Shown here in pieces: positions 4,678-28,781 of a stretch of DNA of 64,000 nucleotides. Source of the DNA: a virus. Both the position numbers and the translations under genes were made by a program. Below the pieces are notes generated by a model. It was not told the origin of the DNA. It worked only from the letters and a program-made list of their open reading frames with translations, and searched no databases. Each line of letters starts with the position of its first letter. The first letter of the stretch is position 1. The DNA is taken from IMG/VR virus record IMGVR_UViG_3300044977_000094, positions 64,001 to 128,000 of that record; one strand, given 5' to 3'.

Positions 4678-6264
4678 TCAGCCCCGCTTCTCCCACGGCC
4701 ACGACGCATTGCGCCCGGCCTCCAGCAACGGCACCATGCGGAACGCGTGGTCGGTCAGGCCGCCGAAGGTGTGCCGGTTCCGGCTGCCGGACGGACCGTG
4801 GCCGACCCGGTAGCCAGCCAGGTTCCAGGTGTACACCGGCACGTTCGCTGGAACCGCGGTGTCCACCGTGTGCCCGGTGCGCGAGTACGCGGTCTGCTCG
4901 TCGGTCACCACGACGACGCGGTCGTGGCCGCGGTAGTTGTCGGCGATGGCCCGTGGGGTGTCCGTGCCATCGTCCATCCGGAACCGGCCCATCACGGTCA
5001 GGATCGCGTCGCCGCGCTGGAACTGCACCGGGTAGTGGCTCATGCCGTAGCCGACGAGGTCGGCCGACTCGGCGCGCAGTGCGAGCGCGGCCCCGAACAG
5101 CGCAGCCTTCTCCGCGAGGGCGATGTCGCTGTCGGTGCGGGTCGAGTAGACGTAGCCGGGGAACATCGACGGCGACTGGTCAATGCACACCAGTGTGCGG
5201 CCGGTCAGTGACGGCACGTTGGCCAGGGAGGATCGCAGACTCTTCTCCAGGGCGTGACCCCAGCGCAGGCTGGCCGTGTTCTTGTGCGCGGAGTAGAACC
5301 GGAACGGGAACTGCCGAGAGCGGGCGACCTCGGTCGGGTTGGCCAGCTTGGCGGCGACCTGCTCGGCAACCTCGTCGGACACTCCAGCCTGGTCGAAGTT
5401 CCGCAGGTTCCGCAGCAGCGCCATGTAGCCCATGGACGGGATCACCGCTTCCCAGGCCGCGGCGTCCATGGGGCCCTGGAGCCAGCCGGCCAGTGCCTCC
5501 CAGGTCATGCCCGCGTGCTGGAGCAGGTCCGGGTGCTCGCGCACTACCGTGCGGCGCTGGTCGACGGGGGTGGCCATGAGCTGTTCGCGGGCGACGATGG
5601 TGGACAGGCTGCCGGGCACGTCGGTGTCGCGTCCGTGTCGGCGGTCGATGGCGTGCTTGAACAGGTCGCCCTGCCAGCGCCGGCCGGTGGCGGGTGCGGC
5701 GTGGACGAGTTCGAGGACGTCACCGAAGCGGTAGCCCTTGGAGTCGGTGTCGTACTTGAGCAGCGCTCGCTCGCTGTAGAGGCGCTGGACGGCGTCGGCG
5801 ATTCCGCGCTTGACGGGCTTGGACAGGTTGCGGCCGTAGCGGCTGGTCCAGTAGGCGAGGAGTTCACCGGGCTCGTCGGGGCGCTGGAGAACGGAGTCGA
5901 TGACCTGGCGGGACTGGCCGTCGAGCTTGGCGTCGAGTCGGGCCTTGGCGAACTCGGCCGCGCCGACGAGGGATGCGGTGCGCATGTTGCCGTCGTCGCG
6001 CAGCCAGCCGAGGAGCCCGGCGGTCCACTCCGGGGCGGAGACGGCGAGCTCTCGGATGAGCTGGGTGTAGCGGTCGTCGCGCTGGCCGCCGGATTCGTAG
6101 AAGGTGTCCTGGCCGACGAGGTTGGAGACGGCGAGGAGGAACAGCTCGCTCTTCTCGTCGCGGAGGTAACCGGTCGCGCCCTCGAAGGTGCGCGTGGCGA
6201 CCCCGGTCGTGGTGACGGGGGACGTGCCGGCCGGGCGGACGTGGGGGGTGTTGAAGCGTGACAT
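4678..6264 (-). CDS. rsr: Ro60/Rsr ortholog (TROVE + vWA domains)
   Basis: TROVE motifs (ELFLLAV, GNMRT, QRPDEPGE, MTWEAL, MGYMALLRNLRN, RSRQFPFRF) and vWA MIDAS DQSPSM ... GTD ... VVTDEQ. Likely start is ATG 6264 (MSRFN). Confidence 0.93.
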   Translation of the reverse strand: MSRFNTPHVRPAGTSPVTTTGVATRTFEGATGYLRDEKSELFLLAVSNLVGQDTFYESGGQRDDRYTQLIRELAVSAPEWTAGLLGWLRDDGNMRTASLVGAAEFAKARLDAKLDGQSRQVIDSVLQRPDEPGELLAYWTSRYGRNLSKPVKRGIADAVQRLYSERALLKYDTDSKGYRFGDVLELVHAAPATGRRWQGDLFKHAIDRRHGRDTDVPGSLSTIVAREQLMATPVDQRRTVVREHPDLLQHAGMTWEALAGWLQGPMDAAAWEAVIPSMGYMALLRNLRNFDQAGVSDEVAEQVAAKLANPTEVARSRQFPFRFYSAHKNTASLRWGHALEKSLRSSLANVPSLTGRTLVCIDQSPSMFPGYVYSTRTDSDIALAEKAALFGAALALRAESADLVGYGMSHYPVQFQRGDAILTVMGRFRMDDGTDTPRAIADNYRGHDRVVVVTDEQTAYSRTGHTVDTAVPANVPVYTWNLAGYRVGHGPSGSRNRHTFGGLTDHAFRMVPLLEAGRNASWPWEKRG

Positions 6265-6265
6265 G

Positions 6266-6289
6266 AAAAAGCCCCTCGCTGTGGAGGGG
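6266..6289 (-). terminator. Terminator-like hairpin overlapping the rsr ribosome-binding site
   Basis: Minus strand CCCCTC-CACAGC-GAGGGG-CTTTTT-C-ATG. Confidence 0.6.
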
Positions 6290-6301
6290 AGGAGATGCAA
6301 T

Positions 6302-6441
6302 GGGGTGCCCGAGATCGGAGTCGGCGACGGCGTGATTGTCAATTGCGCTACCCATTGCGCCACCGGCAACCGTGAGGTGGCCGGGCGGGACTTGAACCCG
6401 CAACCCATTGAAGTATCCGTTGCCTTCGCACCGGGCACCCC
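6302..6441 (-). ncRNA. Y RNA 3 (YrlA-like, tRNA elbow without an anticodon arm)
   Basis: Terminal stem GGGGTGCCCG/CGGGCACCCC and GGTGCGA Ro-site. T-arm GCGGG-TTCAAGT-CCCGC, closed acceptor-like stem CCGGC..GCCGG, D-arm GCGC-AATGGGTA-GCGC. Adjacent to rsr. Confidence 0.85.
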
Positions 6442-6442
6442 G

Positions 6443-6527
6443 ATGCATATCCTCCCGAGATCAAGGTCGGCCTGCGGCGTGATTCACCATAAGAAGTAGC
6501 CGCTGGCCAGCGCACCGGGAGGTGCAT
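6443..6527 (-). ncRNA. Y RNA 2 (minimal, Ro-binding scaffold only)
   Basis: Terminal stem CCTCCCG/CGGGAGG. Shares GGTGCG...TACTTC...ATCACGCCG..GCCGACCTTGATCT with the flanking Y RNAs, but has no tRNA-like domain. Confidence 0.75.
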
Positions 6528-6537
6528 GTGAAGTTGT

Positions 6538-6676
6538 GTATCCAGAGTTCAAGGTTGGCGACGCGGTCGTAAGCGCTCTGGGCCGCTGAGCTACCGGCGC
6601 AGAAGCGCCGGCCGGGATTCGAACCCGGGTCTCTCTCTTAGCAGGAGAAGAACTCGTCACCTTCGCACCTGGATGC
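6538..6676 (-). ncRNA. Y RNA 1 (YrlA-like, complete permuted tRNA cloverleaf with GCU anticodon loop)
   Basis: Terminal stem ATCCAG/CTGGAT and GGTGCGA..CCTTGA Ro-site. Insert reads TTCTC-CTGCTAA-GAGAG, AGAC, CCGGG-TTCGAAT-CCCGG, CCGGCGC-TTCT-GCGCCGG, TA, GCTC-AGCGGCCCA-GAGC. Confidence 0.88.
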
Positions 6677-6681
6677 CACCC

Positions 6682-6687
6682 ACGGTA
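6682..6687 (-). promoter_or_regulatory. Putative -10 element for the Y RNA-rsr transcript
   Basis: TACCGT (actinobacterial TANNNT) 5-6 nt upstream of the predicted Y RNA 1 5' end. Confidence 0.45.
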
Positions 6688-6758
6688 CATCACGTTCACC
6701 CGATTGTGCGCCCGCGATTCCGGTCGTTCTGCTGCGCCATGAGTGACCGTCAGTCACG

Positions 6759-6950
6759 ATGGTGTCTATGAGCAGCGAGACGACTGTGTTCGTGAAGTCG
6801 AAGTCCGAGGCGGATGCGCAGGCGTGGGCGACGGTGCTGCGGTCGCTCGGCATGATCGTGGGCGGTCCCTCTGACGCGCCGGGCGTGAGCGGGGACGGGC
6901 GCTGGGTCGTGCGCGCCAACTCGCCCGACCCGGACCGCGCCAGCATCTGA
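6759..6950 (+). CDS. Small hypothetical protein
   Basis: 63-aa ORF divergent from the Y RNA locus, followed by a GC hairpin (~6961-6988). Confidence 0.5.
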   Translation: MVSMSSETTVFVKSKSEADAQAWATVLRSLGMIVGGPSDAPGVSGDGRWVVRANSPDPDRASI

Positions 6951-8976: not shown

Positions 8977-9591
8977 TCAGTGCCATGGTGCGGGCCCGGT
9001 CCGTGAGGCCCATCCGGCGAGTTCCCGCTGCCCGTACAGGCGGATCCCGGCGCGGGCGGCGTAGTCGACAGCAGCCTTGGTGTAGCCGGAGGTGGTGACG
9101 ACGGCCGCCAACTGGGCACGGTGGACAACGGCGTAGGTTCCGCCGACCTTCTGCACCTCGGGGGATCCGACGCGGTTGGTGGGTGCGTAGCGTTTCGCCT
9201 GGATCACCATGCGCCGGCCGTCCGGGGTCGTCGCCAGGACGTCCGCGCCGAGGTCCCCCGCGCCGCCGACCACCTGGACGTGGGTGCAGCCGTCACGGCG
9301 GCACAGGTCCGCGAGAGCATGCTCGAACTGCTTCGGCGTCATCGCCAGGTAGCTGCCGACATGCCGCAGCTGCACCGTGCGCATGACCCTGGCCGCCTGG
9401 CGCTTGCGGAACGAGTACACGCCACCGCCGATCAGACCCACGGCCAGGACGGCGCCCAGGGCGGGGACGGCGGCGATCAGCACGACGGTGAAGAAGACCG
9501 CAGCCAGCCACTTCGCGGCCGGGGACGGCGGTGTGGTCCGGCGCTTGGCTGGCCGGCGGTAGGTGGTGCGGCGCGGTCGACGTCTGGCCAT
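8977..9591 (-). CDS. Membrane-anchored Mrr-like restriction endonuclease
   Basis: Two N-terminal TM helices, then FE..LA.L...G...GDLGADV...IQAKRY...VTTS.YT..A (Mrr_cat). Confidence 0.85.
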   Translation of the reverse strand: MARRRPRRTTYRRPAKRRTTPPSPAAKWLAAVFFTVVLIAAVPALGAVLAVGLIGGGVYSFRKRQAARVMRTVQLRHVGSYLAMTPKQFEHALADLCRRDGCTHVQVVGGAGDLGADVLATTPDGRRMVIQAKRYAPTNRVGSPEVQKVGGTYAVVHRAQLAAVVTTSGYTKAAVDYAARAGIRLYGQRELAGWASRTGPAPWH

Positions 9592-9668
9592 TTCGTCCCC
9601 CCCAGGATTGTGTGCATTGTGCCGCACCAGGCTTGGGCCGGGCGGCAGTTCGAATGGATCAGGGCTAC

Positions 9669-11933
9669 TCAAGGGCTGCCCTCGGTGACGGGCAGTCCGT
9701 ATTCGCCGCTGGCGCCCGGGTTGCGGGTGACAGTGCCGTCCTTGGTGAGGCCGCTGAGGGTGTTCTCGACGGTCTTGCGCGCGACGCCGGTCATCTGGGT
9801 GATCGCATCCAGGTGCAGGTAGCCGACCTCCAGGCCGATGGGGTCGCGGCGCTCATGGAGGACGGCGAGGATCTTCTCCTTCGCGGTCGGCTCCTTCGTC
9901 AGGGTCGTGCTCGGCTTGGCGGGCTTCCACTTCGAGGTGCCGTCCTCGTCCTCTTCCGCAGCTGGCCCGACGGGGGTCAAGGCGATGTTCTGGCGGTCGT
10001 CCCAGTCGGGGAAGTCGCCCGGAATGACGATCTTCTCGGGGTCGAACAGGCCGGCGGCGGATTCCAGGATCCAGGCGCGCATCATCTCCGCGCGCTCATC
10101 GGGGCCGACGACGTAGCCGACGCCAAAGGTGCGGCGCGGGTCGTCCTCGGCGACGGTGGCGTCGTAGATCAGGGCATCGTCGTCGCCCTTCCAGAACGCC
10201 GGGATCTTCGAGGGGTCGATGCCGTCGAAGGCTTCGGGCAAGTCCACGCGGTTTTTCTGCGCACTGTCGGAGCGCAGCAGAGCCAGGAAGCCGCCGTAGA
10301 AGAGGTTGTCGCGGATCGAGGTGTCGCCAGCCATCTTTTCGAGGTTCAGGATCTGGCCGCACAGGATCAGGCACATCCCCAGTGAGCGGGCCTGCTCGGC
10401 GATCGCCGCGACGATGAACCCGGCTTCGGCGCGGTATGGGCTCTTCTCGCCGAGGAGCTGTGCGAACTCGTCGAGGATGACGGCGATCCAGGGGCGGTCC
10501 GTGCTGGCGATGAAGTTCTTCTGCCGCATGGCCGCAGACTCCATGACGCGGTGCTGGAGTATCGCGTAGGCGACGCGCAGCGCCCCCAGGGCTTCCTCGG
10601 GGCCACAGCCAGCGTGGGCAGCCATATCTTCCACGTCGGGGTTCGAGGATCCCTTGGGGTCGGCGTAAATGAGCGCAAAGCGGTTGACGTGGTAGGCCAG
10701 AGCGAGGATTTGAAGGACGCCGCCCTTGCCGGAGCCGGTGACGCCGGCGACCAGACCGTGGCGACCGCCGCCCTTCTCGTCGAAGAGCTGGACGCGGGCG
10801 GGACGGCCGGAGATCCCGGTTCCGATGGCGACGAATCCGTTTTGGTTGGCGACCAGGGTGTCCGGGCCGGGCAGGGGCCGGCCCTCTTCCAGCGGTGAGC
10901 GGTCCATCATGCGCAGCTTGGCCTTGCGCGGGTTGTTGGTCGCGGTGACTGACACGAGCAGGGTGGTGGTGCGCAGGGCTCCGGCGATGCGGTAGGCGTC
11001 GGGCATGGTGATCGCGTCGGTGTCTTCGTCGGCGACGATCCACGCGGCGACGCCGCCGGTGGCCGGGTCGGGGATGGTGCCTTCGAGGTGGGTGCCGGGC
11101 ATGCAGCCGTTCTTGTGGCCGACGCGGCGCATCCACAGTGCGTCCAGGGCGCTGTACTGGGGCTCGTCGACTGCGGGGGCGACCATGTGGACCAGGATGC
11201 GGCGGGCACTGGTGTGCGGGCCCGCGGTGATGTGGACCTGCTCGACGGGGATGCGGTAGACGCCGGACACCGTCTCGGCGGTGACCGAGACGGGCCGGCC
11301 GGGGTCGGCTTCGATCGTGCCCTCCCATGCCTCGGGGCTGTGGCCGGTCAGGGTGAGGTGGTTGCCGGGGTGGGCGCCGTCCTCCCGGGAGATGTGGATG
11401 TGCCAGGGCATCAGCACGTCATCGCCAGGAGCCGGCGCCGCGGCCGGTGCGGGGTTGGCGGGTGCCTGGTAGGCGAGGGCCTGGGGGCGGTGCCCGCGCA
11501 GGACACGGCGCAGCGAGAACGTGACGTACCCGGTCGCGCCCCACCAGGCCAGGGAGACCAGGCCGGACAGCGACGGCAGTGCCATCCATCCGGCGACCAG
11601 GGAGTCGACGCCGGGCCAGCCGTGCATGGTCGCCGTGGCCGCTGCGGTGGCGGTGGCGATCACGGAGACCAGGAACGGCTCGCGATGGGCGCGCAGGATG
11701 TCACCGCCGGGCAGGGCGTCCATGGCGTCGTCGGGCAGCAGACGGGTGAAGTTCGCCCCGGCCATCAGGGCCGGCGCGACCAGGAGGACGCTGACGGTGC
11801 CCGCGGCCTGCCCGTCCAGCAGCGGCATGGTCAGAGCCGTCGCCAGTGGTGCGGCGGCCTGGGCGACGGCGAAGCGCTTCTCCGCACGCGGGTTCGGCGC
11901 ATGGGCAACTGCGGTGGTGTCGTTGGTGGTCAC
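9669..11933 (-). CDS. traB: TraB-like FtsK/SpoIIIE DNA translocase (Streptomyces conjugation)
   Basis: N-terminal TM segments, Walker A GVTGSGKG, DPKG, Walker B VILDEF, C-terminal winged helix (LDAITQMTGVARKTVENTLSGL). Confidence 0.82.
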   Translation of the reverse strand: MTTNDTTAVAHAPNPRAEKRFAVAQAAAPLATALTMPLLDGQAAGTVSVLLVAPALMAGANFTRLLPDDAMDALPGGDILRAHREPFLVSVIATATAAATATMHGWPGVDSLVAGWMALPSLSGLVSLAWWGATGYVTFSLRRVLRGHRPQALAYQAPANPAPAAAPAPGDDVLMPWHIHISREDGAHPGNHLTLTGHSPEAWEGTIEADPGRPVSVTAETVSGVYRIPVEQVHITAGPHTSARRILVHMVAPAVDEPQYSALDALWMRRVGHKNGCMPGTHLEGTIPDPATGGVAAWIVADEDTDAITMPDAYRIAGALRTTTLLVSVTATNNPRKAKLRMMDRSPLEEGRPLPGPDTLVANQNGFVAIGTGISGRPARVQLFDEKGGGRHGLVAGVTGSGKGGVLQILALAYHVNRFALIYADPKGSSNPDVEDMAAHAGCGPEEALGALRVAYAILQHRVMESAAMRQKNFIASTDRPWIAVILDEFAQLLGEKSPYRAEAGFIVAAIAEQARSLGMCLILCGQILNLEKMAGDTSIRDNLFYGGFLALLRSDSAQKNRVDLPEAFDGIDPSKIPAFWKGDDDALIYDATVAEDDPRRTFGVGYVVGPDERAEMMRAWILESAAGLFDPEKIVIPGDFPDWDDRQNIALTPVGPAAEEDEDGTSKWKPAKPSTTLTKEPTAKEKILAVLHERRDPIGLEVGYLHLDAITQMTGVARKTVENTLSGLTKDGTVTRNPGASGEYGLPVTEGSP

Positions 11934-26500: not shown

Positions 26501-28159
26501 GGGATCGCCGCAGCGGTCGCCGCTGGGCGCAGCTGACCAACCACCAACTGAAGGAGCAGCATGAGCAGCACCGACGACTGGATGCGTTCCGTCTTCGACC
26601 CGAAGCAGATCAAGGCCGACATCACTGCCGACGCCAAGACCGCAAGAGAGTTCCAGGAGCGCGGCAACATCCGCGACTACGAGCGCTACCACCGAGATAT
26701 CAACCGGGCGTTGGACCTCCTGGCCAGGTTCCCCCAGGAGGGATCAGCATGACCGAGCGCACTCCCATCGAGATCCTGGCTGCTGCGGCTCGCCTGCTGC
26801 GGGCCAACGCGACCGCCCCTCGGGTCGAAGGGTCGCCCGGCCTGCTGCGGCAGGACGAGGACTGTGCGCGCGACAACTGCCCCTGCAACGAGCCGATGAT
26901 GCGCCCCGGCCTCGGGCTAGCGGTAGCGGACTGGCTGGAGGTCGTCGTGGGTGAGATGCGGATATGGGGGGCCGACCCGGATTGCGCGAGCTGGAACGCC
27001 GCGCTCGTGACGGCACGCCGGACCCTCGGGGACGAGGCGGATGTTGAGCGTGAACATGGCGTCTGACCTGCGCAAAGTCTCCACCCATCCTTAAGCACAA
27101 ACCCTGTCGAACCCCCGCAATCGTGAGATAATTGGCGTCAACTCCCAACGAAGGCAACCCACATGAGCCCGACCGACGCTCTCGTCCAGCATGTCCGAAT
27201 GGCCGTCGCCCTGGGGCTCTCCGACCGGCACCAGGAAGCCTGGGCGGAGATCGAGACCGCTGTCGCCCCTGATCCGCTGGCCATGTACGCCACCATCTCT
27301 GCCCTTGCTGAAGTCGCCGTCGCCGACCACGCCGATCGGGACTCTGGCGGGGTGTTCGGCCTGACTGTGCAGTACCAGGGCCGTGAGGCCGACATCAACG
27401 GGGCCCCGGCGGCACAGCGGCTCGCGATGCAGTTCATGGCCGCACAGGCCAACCGGGACCTCGACATGACCCGGGCCCTGTTCGTGGCCGCGATGAACAC
27501 GGACCCCGCTTCGGTAGCCGGCGCGACTCTGATCGTCTACGAGGCCGCGCTGAAGACCAGCCGCGAGCGCATCAACCGGGGCAAGGAGGTTCCCGGTGCT
27601 GACGCCTGACGCCGAGCTGGATCGGCTCCGCACTGAGAACGCCCTCCTCCGCACCCAACTCACTGCCCAGGCCGTCATCCCCGAGCTCCCGGCCGAGTAC
27701 GACGGCGAGGCGATCACCTGGCGGCCTTGGGAAGCGGCACCGGTCATCAACTGCTACCGGCATGCCGACTTCAACACCTGCACTCAGTGCGGCCATCCCG
27801 GGCCCTCCGTGATGGCATTCGGGTACGCGGGTCCGAAGAAGCCGCTGCTGAAGTACCAGGCTCACCGCTGCCCGTCGTGCCAGGAGACCACGGTGTACCG
27901 GCGCGACCGTGATTGGCGTGGCCTTGACCTCGTGCAGATCGCCTACCACCCGCCGCGCACCACCGCCCTCACTATCACCTGACCTGGAGTCCTGATGCCC
28001 GTCACCGACCCCCGCCCCACCCCGCCGGCGTGCCCGCGTGTCCCGCTCGCCCAAGCAGCCCGCGCCGCCGAGACCGCTGCGCCGTCGGTCCTGGACCGGA
28101 TCCTGGCCCCGGGCGACAAGCAGCGGGTTGAGGTTGCAGCGTTCCAGTCGTCCATCTGA
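23523..28159 (+). CDS. Run of small hypothetical phage genes (23523-23819, 23895-24074 membrane, 24119-24502, 24499-24918, 24936-25217, 25269-25760, 26090-26536 DUF3307-like membrane, 26561-26752, 26749-27066, 27163-27609, 27596-27982, 27995-28159)
   Basis: Most have GGAG/AAGGAG SDs or overlapping start/stop codons and GC3-biased codons. Confidence 0.65.
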
Positions 28160-28184
28160 CCGCCAGCTCTCACCGGAGTCCCGA

Positions 28185-28781
28185 ATGACCGCGATCTTCT
28201 ACGACACCGAGTTCATCGACACCGGCACCACCATCGACCTGATCTCCATCGGCATGGTCACCGAGAACGGCGACGAGTACTACGCCATCATCGACGACCA
28301 CGAGGTGATCACCCGGGCGATGCGCCACGACTGGCTGCGGAAGAACGTCGTGCCGTCGCTGCCGATCACCGATGCCCACCAAGACACGGAAACGACCGTG
28401 TGGTTCGCCTGCCCGACACCGGAAGCCGCACCTGCCAACTGCTGGTTCTGGAACGAGGACCATCCGGACTACCGGCATGTGAAGCCCCGCGAGCAGATCG
28501 CCAAGGAGGTCCGGCAGTTCATCGCCGCAGCCCCGGACCCGCACCTGTGGGCCTGGTATGCCGCGTACGATCACGTCGCCCTGGCCCAACTGTTCGGCAC
28601 GATGATGCAGCTGCCTGTCGGTATCCCGATGTGGACAGCGGATCTGCGGCAGGAAGTCGAGCGGCTGGGCAACCCGCAGTTGCCGGAGCAGCCTGCGGGC
28701 GAGCACAACGCACTGGAGGATGCGAGGCACAACCTCGTCCGGTGGGCGCACCTGAAGTACTTCGAGGTGCCTGGTGTCTGA
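28185..28781 (+). CDS. 3'-5' exoribonuclease, Rv2179c/RNase AS-like (DEDDh)
   Basis: IFYDTEF...IDLISIG.V...WAWYAAYDHV.LAQLFG.M..LP..IPM.T.DLRQ...HNALEDARH. Confidence 0.88.
   Translation: MTAIFYDTEFIDTGTTIDLISIGMVTENGDEYYAIIDDHEVITRAMRHDWLRKNVVPSLPITDAHQDTETTVWFACPTPEAAPANCWFWNEDHPDYRHVKPREQIAKEVRQFIAAAPDPHLWAWYAAYDHVALAQLFGTMMQLPVGIPMWTADLRQEVERLGNPQLPEQPAGEHNALEDARHNLVRWAHLKYFEVPGV

Follow-up and report, generated by a model that had tools for sequence, protein, structure and literature searches.

What is encoded in the few hundred nucleotides that precede the Ro60 gene of a Streptomyces-type phage-like genome, and how would the products be made and used? The locus lies in a 64-kb stretch (the window, to which all coordinates refer) that spans positions 64001-128000 of an IMG/VR virus contig of 175,260 bases. 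The original prediction had placed three minus-strand Y RNAs there, with a common Ro60-binding scaffold and differing inserts, cut from one precursor and carried by a phage as a cassette-like toolkit; a search with the Rfam Y RNA models and a covariation alignment were proposed as checks. With a probability of roughly 0.8, the locus is a small operon in which three Y RNA genes are followed by rsr, the gene for their partner protein (bacterial Ro60). This reading draws on the sequence, structure, conservation and covariation of the units, on the conservation of the promoter element and of a hairpin before rsr, and on the phage context. The locus is an ordinary, well-formed case of the known Ro60-Y RNA system in a phage, with modest new detail.

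The rsr gene and its phage setting

The protein encoded downstream of the array belongs to the Ro60/Rsr (TROVE) family both by domain content and by full-length likeness to solved Ro60 proteins. Pfam TROVE (PF05731) matches with 64.9 bits against a cut-off of 23, phrog_850 (RNA-binding protein) with an E-value of 1e-45, and PDB entries 9KOP and 9L5Y, which represent Ro60 of the Thermus phage phiLo, with an E-value of 1.8e-24; the phiLo protein, about 27% identical, is the best solved relative. Alignments with relatives start at residue 1, in support of the ATG at 6264. The frame is open 5' of this codon to a GTG at 6438 (4678-6438, minus strand, 586 aa), so that a longest-ORF annotation would cover the third unit of the array. 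A maximum-likelihood tree of 115 Rsr proteins, quickly built, midpoint-rooted for drawing only and with several long viral branches, pairs the window protein with a viral row (support 99). Viral and genomic rows are mixed around this pair, which falls outside a tight clade made up of 58 Streptomyces rows; on this tree the viral label has to change at least eight times. Ro60 homologues were found in 61 phage records, including those of 13 Streptomyces and 8 Gordonia phages.

The record is phage-like, as had been supposed. Immediately downstream of rsr, and on its strand, are genes for terminase, portal, major head, tape-measure and minor tail proteins; the window also contains replication, recombination, integrase and regulator genes. 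The absence of rtcB from the window, part of the same prediction, extends to the whole 175-kb record, in which no RtcB was found.

Several other features of the record deserve mention in their own right. It is made up of two related phage-like genomes that are co-linear at an offset of 88-94 kb and 70-91% identical in blocks, with integrases mid-unit and with rsr and the Y array in one copy only; it could represent tandem prophages, a co-integrate or a chimeric assembly. The protein encoded downstream of rsr and its counterpart in the second copy both match phrog_1467, and BLASTP found no significant likeness between the two (E 0.6). A few genes upstream of the array, a protein with an Mrr-type restriction endonuclease domain adjoins an FtsK/SpoIIIE-like protein (8977-9672 and 9669-11933, minus strand). 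A plus-strand gene at 28038-28781 encodes a 3'-5' exoribonuclease Rv2179c-like domain (Pfam E 3.7e-16), labelled RNase H in PHROGs. Known Ro60-Y RNA particles cooperate with 3'-5' exoribonucleases.

Three units with one basal stem and different apical modules

Between a -10-like hexamer and the rsr start codon, within 425 nt 5' of the ATG, three structured units are arranged head to tail on the minus strand (6302-6674) in the order long-short-long, at nearly the coordinates first claimed (Table 1). Their 3' ends lie 38 to 276 nt from the ATG, on the same strand as rsr. A terminal stem closes every unit. Its 5' strand leads into an invariant GGUGCG, and its 3' strand follows GA-N-CUC. The motif said to be common to the units is real: within the array, the 13-nt pattern CCNGGTGCGNNGG has three copies in 250 nt (6660-6672, 6507-6519 and 6423-6435), and its total in the window is five, two copies lying outside the array, against a mean of 1.13 in shuffled controls, in which five copies were reached in 2 of 100. 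Chance repetition of the motif was ruled out because the three copies are clustered within 250 nt and the structures covary. The GC content at the third codon position is 0.65 in the array, in the frame shown, versus 0.92 in rsr; as the codon-position GC bias of the neighbouring genes is missing, the array is non-coding by composition.

Table 1. Features of the rsr locus in window coordinates.
Feature	Position	Strand	Basis or remark
-10-like hexamer, TANNNT type	6682-6687	minus	about 7 nt 5' of the first paired base of unit 1
Unit 1, long YrlA-type Y RNA	6540-6674	minus	Rfam YrlA and model R1 matches
Unit 1, anticodon-arm-like hairpin, 5-bp stem and 7-nt loop	6633-6649	minus	sits after the basal stems
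Unit 1, T arm	6612-6628	minus	4 nt after the 5-bp/7-nt hairpin
Unit 1, acceptor-like stem, exactly 7 bp, 4-nt closing loop	6594-6611	minus	
Unit 1, D arm	6575-6591	minus	UA between acceptor-like stem and D arm
Unit 2, short YrlB-like Y RNA	6451-6522	minus	predicted fold, model R2 match, covariation
Unit 3, long YrlA-type Y RNA	6302-6441	minus	Rfam YrlA and model R1 matches
Unit 3, junction-closing stem, 5 bp	6407-6411 with 6339-6343	minus	
Unit 3, T arm	6385-6401	minus	
Unit 3, acceptor-like stem	6363-6384	minus	
Unit 3, D arm	6345-6360	minus	
Terminator-like site: GC-rich hairpin (6272-6289) and five T (6266-6270)	6266-6289	minus	
rsr, Ro60/TROVE protein, 528 aa	4678-6264	minus	Pfam TROVE, phrog_850 and PDB matches

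The three inserts do differ as proposed. Unit 1 carries a hairpin followed by T, acceptor-like and D arms; unit 3 has the arms in the same order without the extra hairpin, its junction being closed by a 5-bp stem like that of the published YrlA architecture; and unit 2 folds as a long hairpin with the basal stem of the other two and a pyrimidine-rich apical region, without a tRNA-like module. The T loops of units 1 and 3 read UUCGAAU and UUCAAGU, the D loop contains GG, and the D stem is preceded by UA or UG.

Spacers of 17 nt and 9 nt separate units 1 and 2 and units 2 and 3, respectively. The spacer 5' of the short unit (6523-6539; CACAACUUCA...UGCACC) is conserved, and the same sequence forms the leader after the -10 element where arrays start with a short unit (L004, L018, L019 and L037). 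It may be a processing site.

Conservation and covariation among rsr loci

A search with Rsr yielded 34 viral loci and 359 genomic relatives, of which the best 80, nearly all from Streptomycetaceae, were kept. Five arrays align unit for unit, and the consensus fold of nine long units from five loci contains compensatory changes at 20 of 33 pairs. Covariance models for the long units (R1) and for the short unit (R2) were built from these alignments; R1 matches unit 1 at 6535-6678 (142.6 bits, self-trained) and unit 3 at 6301-6441 (113.4 bits), and R2 matches unit 2 at 6446-6527 (106.5 bits, self-trained).

Across 36 sources (the 34 viral loci, the window and the Gordonia phage BearBQ), R1 found 80 matches and R2 27, all of them on the rsr strand and upstream of rsr save two: one match downstream of rsr in L034 and one partial match over a real tRNA-Lys in L025. 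Units precede rsr in 32 of the 34 viral loci; the exceptions are L024, which offers only 69 nt of upstream sequence and has no units, and L034, the sole match of which is the downstream one. After merging, the 36 sources (two of which, L012 and L016, are identical) contain one unit in eight cases, two in nine, three in 13, four in three, and six and seven in one each. Among the best 80 of the 359 genomic relatives, units precede rsr in 78 loci, with none in two, one in six, two in 32 and three in 40, and long-short-long is the commonest layout (39 of 80); one genome locus, L071, has only 107 nt of upstream sequence. The short unit recurs at the equivalent position in viral and genome loci, according to R2.

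Covariation is strong. Over the 80 viral-locus matches to R1, 94.0% of cells are paired versus 65.2% in shuffled and 37-46% in slid alignments, and 30 of 33 pairs vary on both sides, with all three tRNA-like arms covarying; over the 95 genome-locus matches to R2, 94.3% are paired versus 85.9% and 32-56%, and 15 of 22 pairs vary on both sides; because these alignments were fitted to the models of this same analysis, which favours the modelled structure, and because many of the genomes are close kin, the numbers overstate independence, and the direction they give is clear.

Unit 1 is most similar to its positional orthologue in L007 (77% identity, versus 60% to unit 3 of its own array), and unit 3 to its positional orthologue in L017 (80%). 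The unit classes are therefore old and maintained, and recent duplication of units was ruled out, as each long unit is closer to its positional orthologue than to its long counterpart in the array. Megablast against phage records gave a single 79-nt match, to BearBQ, over the tRNA-like part of unit 1. Four neighbouring proteins (222 aa, downstream of rsr; 60 aa, DUF6221 and 200 aa, upstream) had no relatives in the 114 rsr loci, so the array and rsr travel together and behave as a portable cassette.

Assignment to the Y RNA family

Rfam in gathering mode found no match in the whole 64-kb window. In E-value mode, over a 701-nt search, the YrlA model (RF02553) matched both long units, unit 3 at 6321-6423 with 44.9 bits (E 1e-8) and unit 1 at 6552-6660 with 33.2 bits (E 2.5e-5), both scores lying below the curated gathering score of 69 bits. 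The model aligns full-length to both in cmscan, with all three arms paired, and over the whole 175-kb record the two long units were matched by YrlA with E-values of 6.3e-10 and 1.5e-6, with no further match. No Rfam family matched unit 2, and Rfam has no curated YrlB model.

Some of the features that define YrlA in Chen 2014 are present: the array adjoins rsr and shares its strand, and the T arm, closed acceptor-like stem and D arm occur in units 1 and 3 together with the conserved loop residues. The 5' motif GNCGAAN0-1G of that study has no exact match anywhere in the array; units 1 and 3 read UGCGAAGG, with the CGAA core kept, and unit 2 reads UGCGCUGG. The sequence GGUCCGA is cited in the same paper as a contact of Xenopus Ro60 (Chen 2014; PMC4201824), and the GGUGCGA of the array is one base off. 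Given the sub-gathering scores and the inexact 5' motif, the long units are called YrlA-type but divergent, and unit 2 is called YrlB-like by shape only.

One genome locus permits comparison with a published candidate. In Streptomyces turgidiscabies ATCC 700248 (L058), R1 matches at 1302-1446 of the locus, ending 55 nt before rsr; Table S1 of Chen 2014 lists a 127-nt YrlA candidate 69 nt from Ro in S. turgidiscabies Car8 (PMC4201824). The placements are consistent, the records being different ones.

The Y RNA identity put forward in the original prediction is thus borne out by the Rfam YrlA matches, by positional orthologues at 110 of the 114 related rsr loci, and by covariation. That the three units are Y RNA-type genes, in which one basal, putatively Ro60-docking stem carries different apical modules, is well supported at the level of sequence and predicted structure.

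Signals for transcription and translation

Where would transcription of the array begin? Ninety-three arrays offer both a recognisable anchor and 45 nt of sequence upstream; in 50 of these 93, a TANNNT hexamer precedes the GGUGCG of unit one in the array by exactly 12 nt, and in 70 by 10-22 nt. At the right distance it occurs in 0.75% of control 18-nt windows and before 2 of 142 internal units. A scan for consensus sigma-70 promoters found none at the array, so the -10 assignment depends on conservation. Beyond the hexamer lies a divergent 63-aa ORF on the plus strand (6759-6950), on which account the array heads its own transcription unit. Directly before the ATG of this ORF is a perfect 5-bp inverted repeat with a 5-nt spacer (6743-6757), which may be an operator.

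The 3' arm of the GC-rich hairpin at the other end of the array is the purine-rich ribosome-binding site of rsr. Such a hairpin pairs positions -15 to -5 ahead of the rsr start in 100 of 110 loci (L004-L117); of the remaining ten, seven have the site paired at fewer than four positions and three have a gap too short to assess. The hairpin resembles a terminator or attenuator and would at the same time mask the ribosome-binding site, termination being uncertain because the U run after it is missing in some relatives. A terminator scan of the array found no convincing terminator between the units.

These signals bear on whether the units act as separate RNAs at all. The array could mainly be a cis-acting 5' leader of the rsr mRNA, to which Rsr binds so as to set the translation or termination of its own message, with no stable trans-acting RNAs. 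Such a role would suit its placement, with the sole conserved promoter element on one side and the start of rsr on the other, as it would the widespread masking of the ribosome-binding site and the lack of a convincing terminator between the units. However, the equivalent RNAs of Mycobacterium smegmatis, YrlA and YrlB, which derive from one precursor upstream of rsr, are described as accumulating as discrete Rsr-bound species (PMC4201824), and three paralogue classes with covarying apical modules have been kept, which is more than a leader needs. A mainly cis-acting array is for these reasons quite unlikely; cis-acting and trans-acting roles are compatible.

Very improbable is the separate transcription of each unit from a promoter hidden in the preceding one. 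The spacers leave room for upstream promoters, with nothing more direct in favour of the idea, but TANNNT precedes internal units far more rarely than first units, in the counts given above, and a single precursor is documented in the M. smegmatis paper (PMC4201824). With the -10-like hexamer found before the first unit only, and with that precedent, the single precursor of the original prediction is plausible: one transcript processed into three RNAs would be the most economical reading of the operon.

Resemblance to tRNA and the hairpin before the T arm

The long units can hardly be degenerate or rearranged tRNA genes left over from a phage tRNA cluster and unrelated to Rsr: their T and D arms are tRNA-like, ARAGORN reads parts of related units as tRNAs, and rsr lies inside tRNA arrays in large Streptomyces phages, but ARAGORN finds no tRNA or tmRNA in the 64-kb window or the whole record, the acceptor-like stem is closed by a loop where a canonical tRNA gene would have a linear cloverleaf and an open acceptor stem, the arms are ordered T, acceptor, D, the basal stem, foreign to any tRNA, is common to all units including the short one, and the units accompany rsr in 110 of 114 loci (the genome loci among them being the best 80 of 359) and covary.

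The large Streptomyces phages just mentioned (BRock, L028/L121; L011, L022 and L025-L031) carry rsr with one or two Y units inside their tRNA gene arrays. In BRock the first Y unit begins where tRNA-Asn ends, and the record leaves a 580-bp gap ahead of the Ro-like gene unannotated.

The hairpin before the T arm, named the variable arm by Chen 2014 (PMC4201824), has the dimensions of an anticodon arm. Among the distal long units of 59 genome loci, counting only units of at least 110 nt, 56 have a 7-nt loop on a stem of at least 4 bp, the stem being 5 bp in 49 and 44 of these 56 hairpins being positioned 5 nt ahead of the T stem. CU opens the loop in 51 of the 59, and the full pattern CU-NNN-AA is present in 40. 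Taking the 5-bp hairpins with a CU start and removing duplicates leaves 36 distinct hairpins, in which the last loop base is A in 35 and the preceding base is A in 26; the three bases at the middle of the loop vary from lineage to lineage, and covariation is seen at the two inner stem pairs. ARAGORN made seven tRNA calls inside Y units of six related loci (L006, L007, L013, L018, L022 and L037), and these calls (Ser-gct, Asn-gtt and Gln-ctg) take the hairpin for an anticodon arm. Such Y units are possibly mis-annotated as tRNAs in phage genomes.

The hairpin might be a retained anticodon arm, and the distal Y RNA would then amount to an entire tRNA that has been circularly permuted, with the opening between the D arm and the anticodon arm; we consider this reading unlikely. 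A dimeric tRNA transcript has been proposed as the origin of YrlA (mentioned in the preprint 10.1101/312249), an origin that the hairpin would fit. Were the anticodon arm indeed retained, these RNAs would be readable by anticodon-loop enzymes, such as modification enzymes and anticodon nucleases; the phage copies might act as decoys or sensors against tRNA-directed host defences; and the units would represent a living intermediate of the proposed origin.

Comparison with known Ro60-Y RNA systems

The M. smegmatis YrlA/YrlB pair is of the same actinobacterial type, lying upstream of rsr on the same strand, with a 7-bp acceptor-like stem in YrlA that is cut by RNase P and, as that locus is described, not under RtcR (PMC4201824). 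Unlike that pair, the present array has three units, two of them tRNA-like, in a phage-like carrier, and is known from sequence. Salmonella Typhimurium YrlA (rsr-yrlBA-rtcBA; RF02553) likewise presents a permuted module of T, closed acceptor-like and D arms on a stem with the Rsr site and is paired with a shorter hairpin Y RNA, as the long and short units are here. The Salmonella operon differs in that rtcB is absent from the whole record studied here and the units score below the Rfam gathering threshold; furthermore, YrlA is described as lacking an anticodon loop (10.1101/312249), whereas unit 1 has its 5-bp, 7-nt hairpin 4 nt before the T arm.

Phage-borne Y RNAs are also on record. Ro60 of the Thermus phage phiLo has two upstream Yrls and is reported to bind these RNAs and the host PNPase in vitro (PMC12135203). 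The two loci are alike in being phage-borne, with Y RNA-like genes in tandem directly upstream of the Ro60 gene, and they differ in the number of units, three here versus two in phiLo, and in proteins that share little more than a quarter of their residues. YrlA candidates beside Ro60 were listed by Chen 2014 for 254 bacteria and 22 phages (PMC4201824). Tables S1 and S2 of that paper give one RNA per genome, including 21 Streptomyces rows and mycobacteriophages such as Bxz1 and ET08, and at least two Y RNAs are described for each of its three experimentally studied species. The Streptomyces and mycobacteriophage candidates resemble the present units in Rsr clade and upstream position; their tabulated distances to Ro are 56-137 nt, the place of unit 3, or 272-315 nt, the place of unit 1, and the three-unit array itself is not listed in these tables.

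The novelty originally ascribed to the locus does not hold to the extent claimed. Y RNAs in phages had been published, in the 22 phages tabulated by Chen 2014 and in the phiLo account, and a three-unit toolkit is not peculiar to phages, long-short-long being the modal layout in Streptomycetaceae in the best 80 of 359 relatives counted above. The literature searched contained no description of the Streptomycetaceae long-short-long array or of phage arrays with up to seven units, which a 2020 review (Sim et al.) could cover. The hairpin that masks the rsr ribosome-binding site and the hairpin of anticodon-arm size seem little described.

A proposed mode of action and its implications

How the array would be transcribed and processed, what it would bind and how it might benefit the phage can be proposed from these features and from the known systems. 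Transcription from the promoter marked by the -10-like hexamer (6682-6687) would start at about the first base of unit 1, and one transcript would span units 1, 2 and 3. The GC-rich hairpin and its U run would stop part of the transcripts and hide the rsr ribosome-binding site, by which the RNAs would be made in excess over Rsr. Host RNases would cut the precursor in the short conserved spacers. In each RNA the basal stem, with GGUGCG on the 5' strand and GA-N-CUC on the 3' strand, would probably dock on the outer face of the Rsr ring. At the apex, unit 1 would present a permuted tRNA mimic with four arms, unit 2 a simple hairpin and unit 3 a tRNA elbow with three arms; because these modules differ, they would recruit different host factors to Rsr, such as tRNA-binding enzymes and PNPase-type exoribonucleases. 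Unit 1, in which a 7-bp acceptor-like stem is followed by UA and the D arm, may be nicked by RNase P, as is M. smegmatis YrlA.

The known picture of Ro60 and Y RNAs is unchanged by these results. They do indicate that standard annotation misses these RNAs, since Rfam at its gathering threshold returns nothing in the window; the records of the Gordonia phage BearBQ and the Streptomyces phage BRock likewise have unannotated gaps at the positions of the Y units. The anticodon-arm-like hairpin bears on the origin of tRNA-mimicking Y RNAs. Finally, with a promoter of its own and a hairpin masking the rsr ribosome-binding site, the conserved three-unit operon would constitute a defined unit in which the role of Ro60 and Y RNAs in a phage may be addressed.
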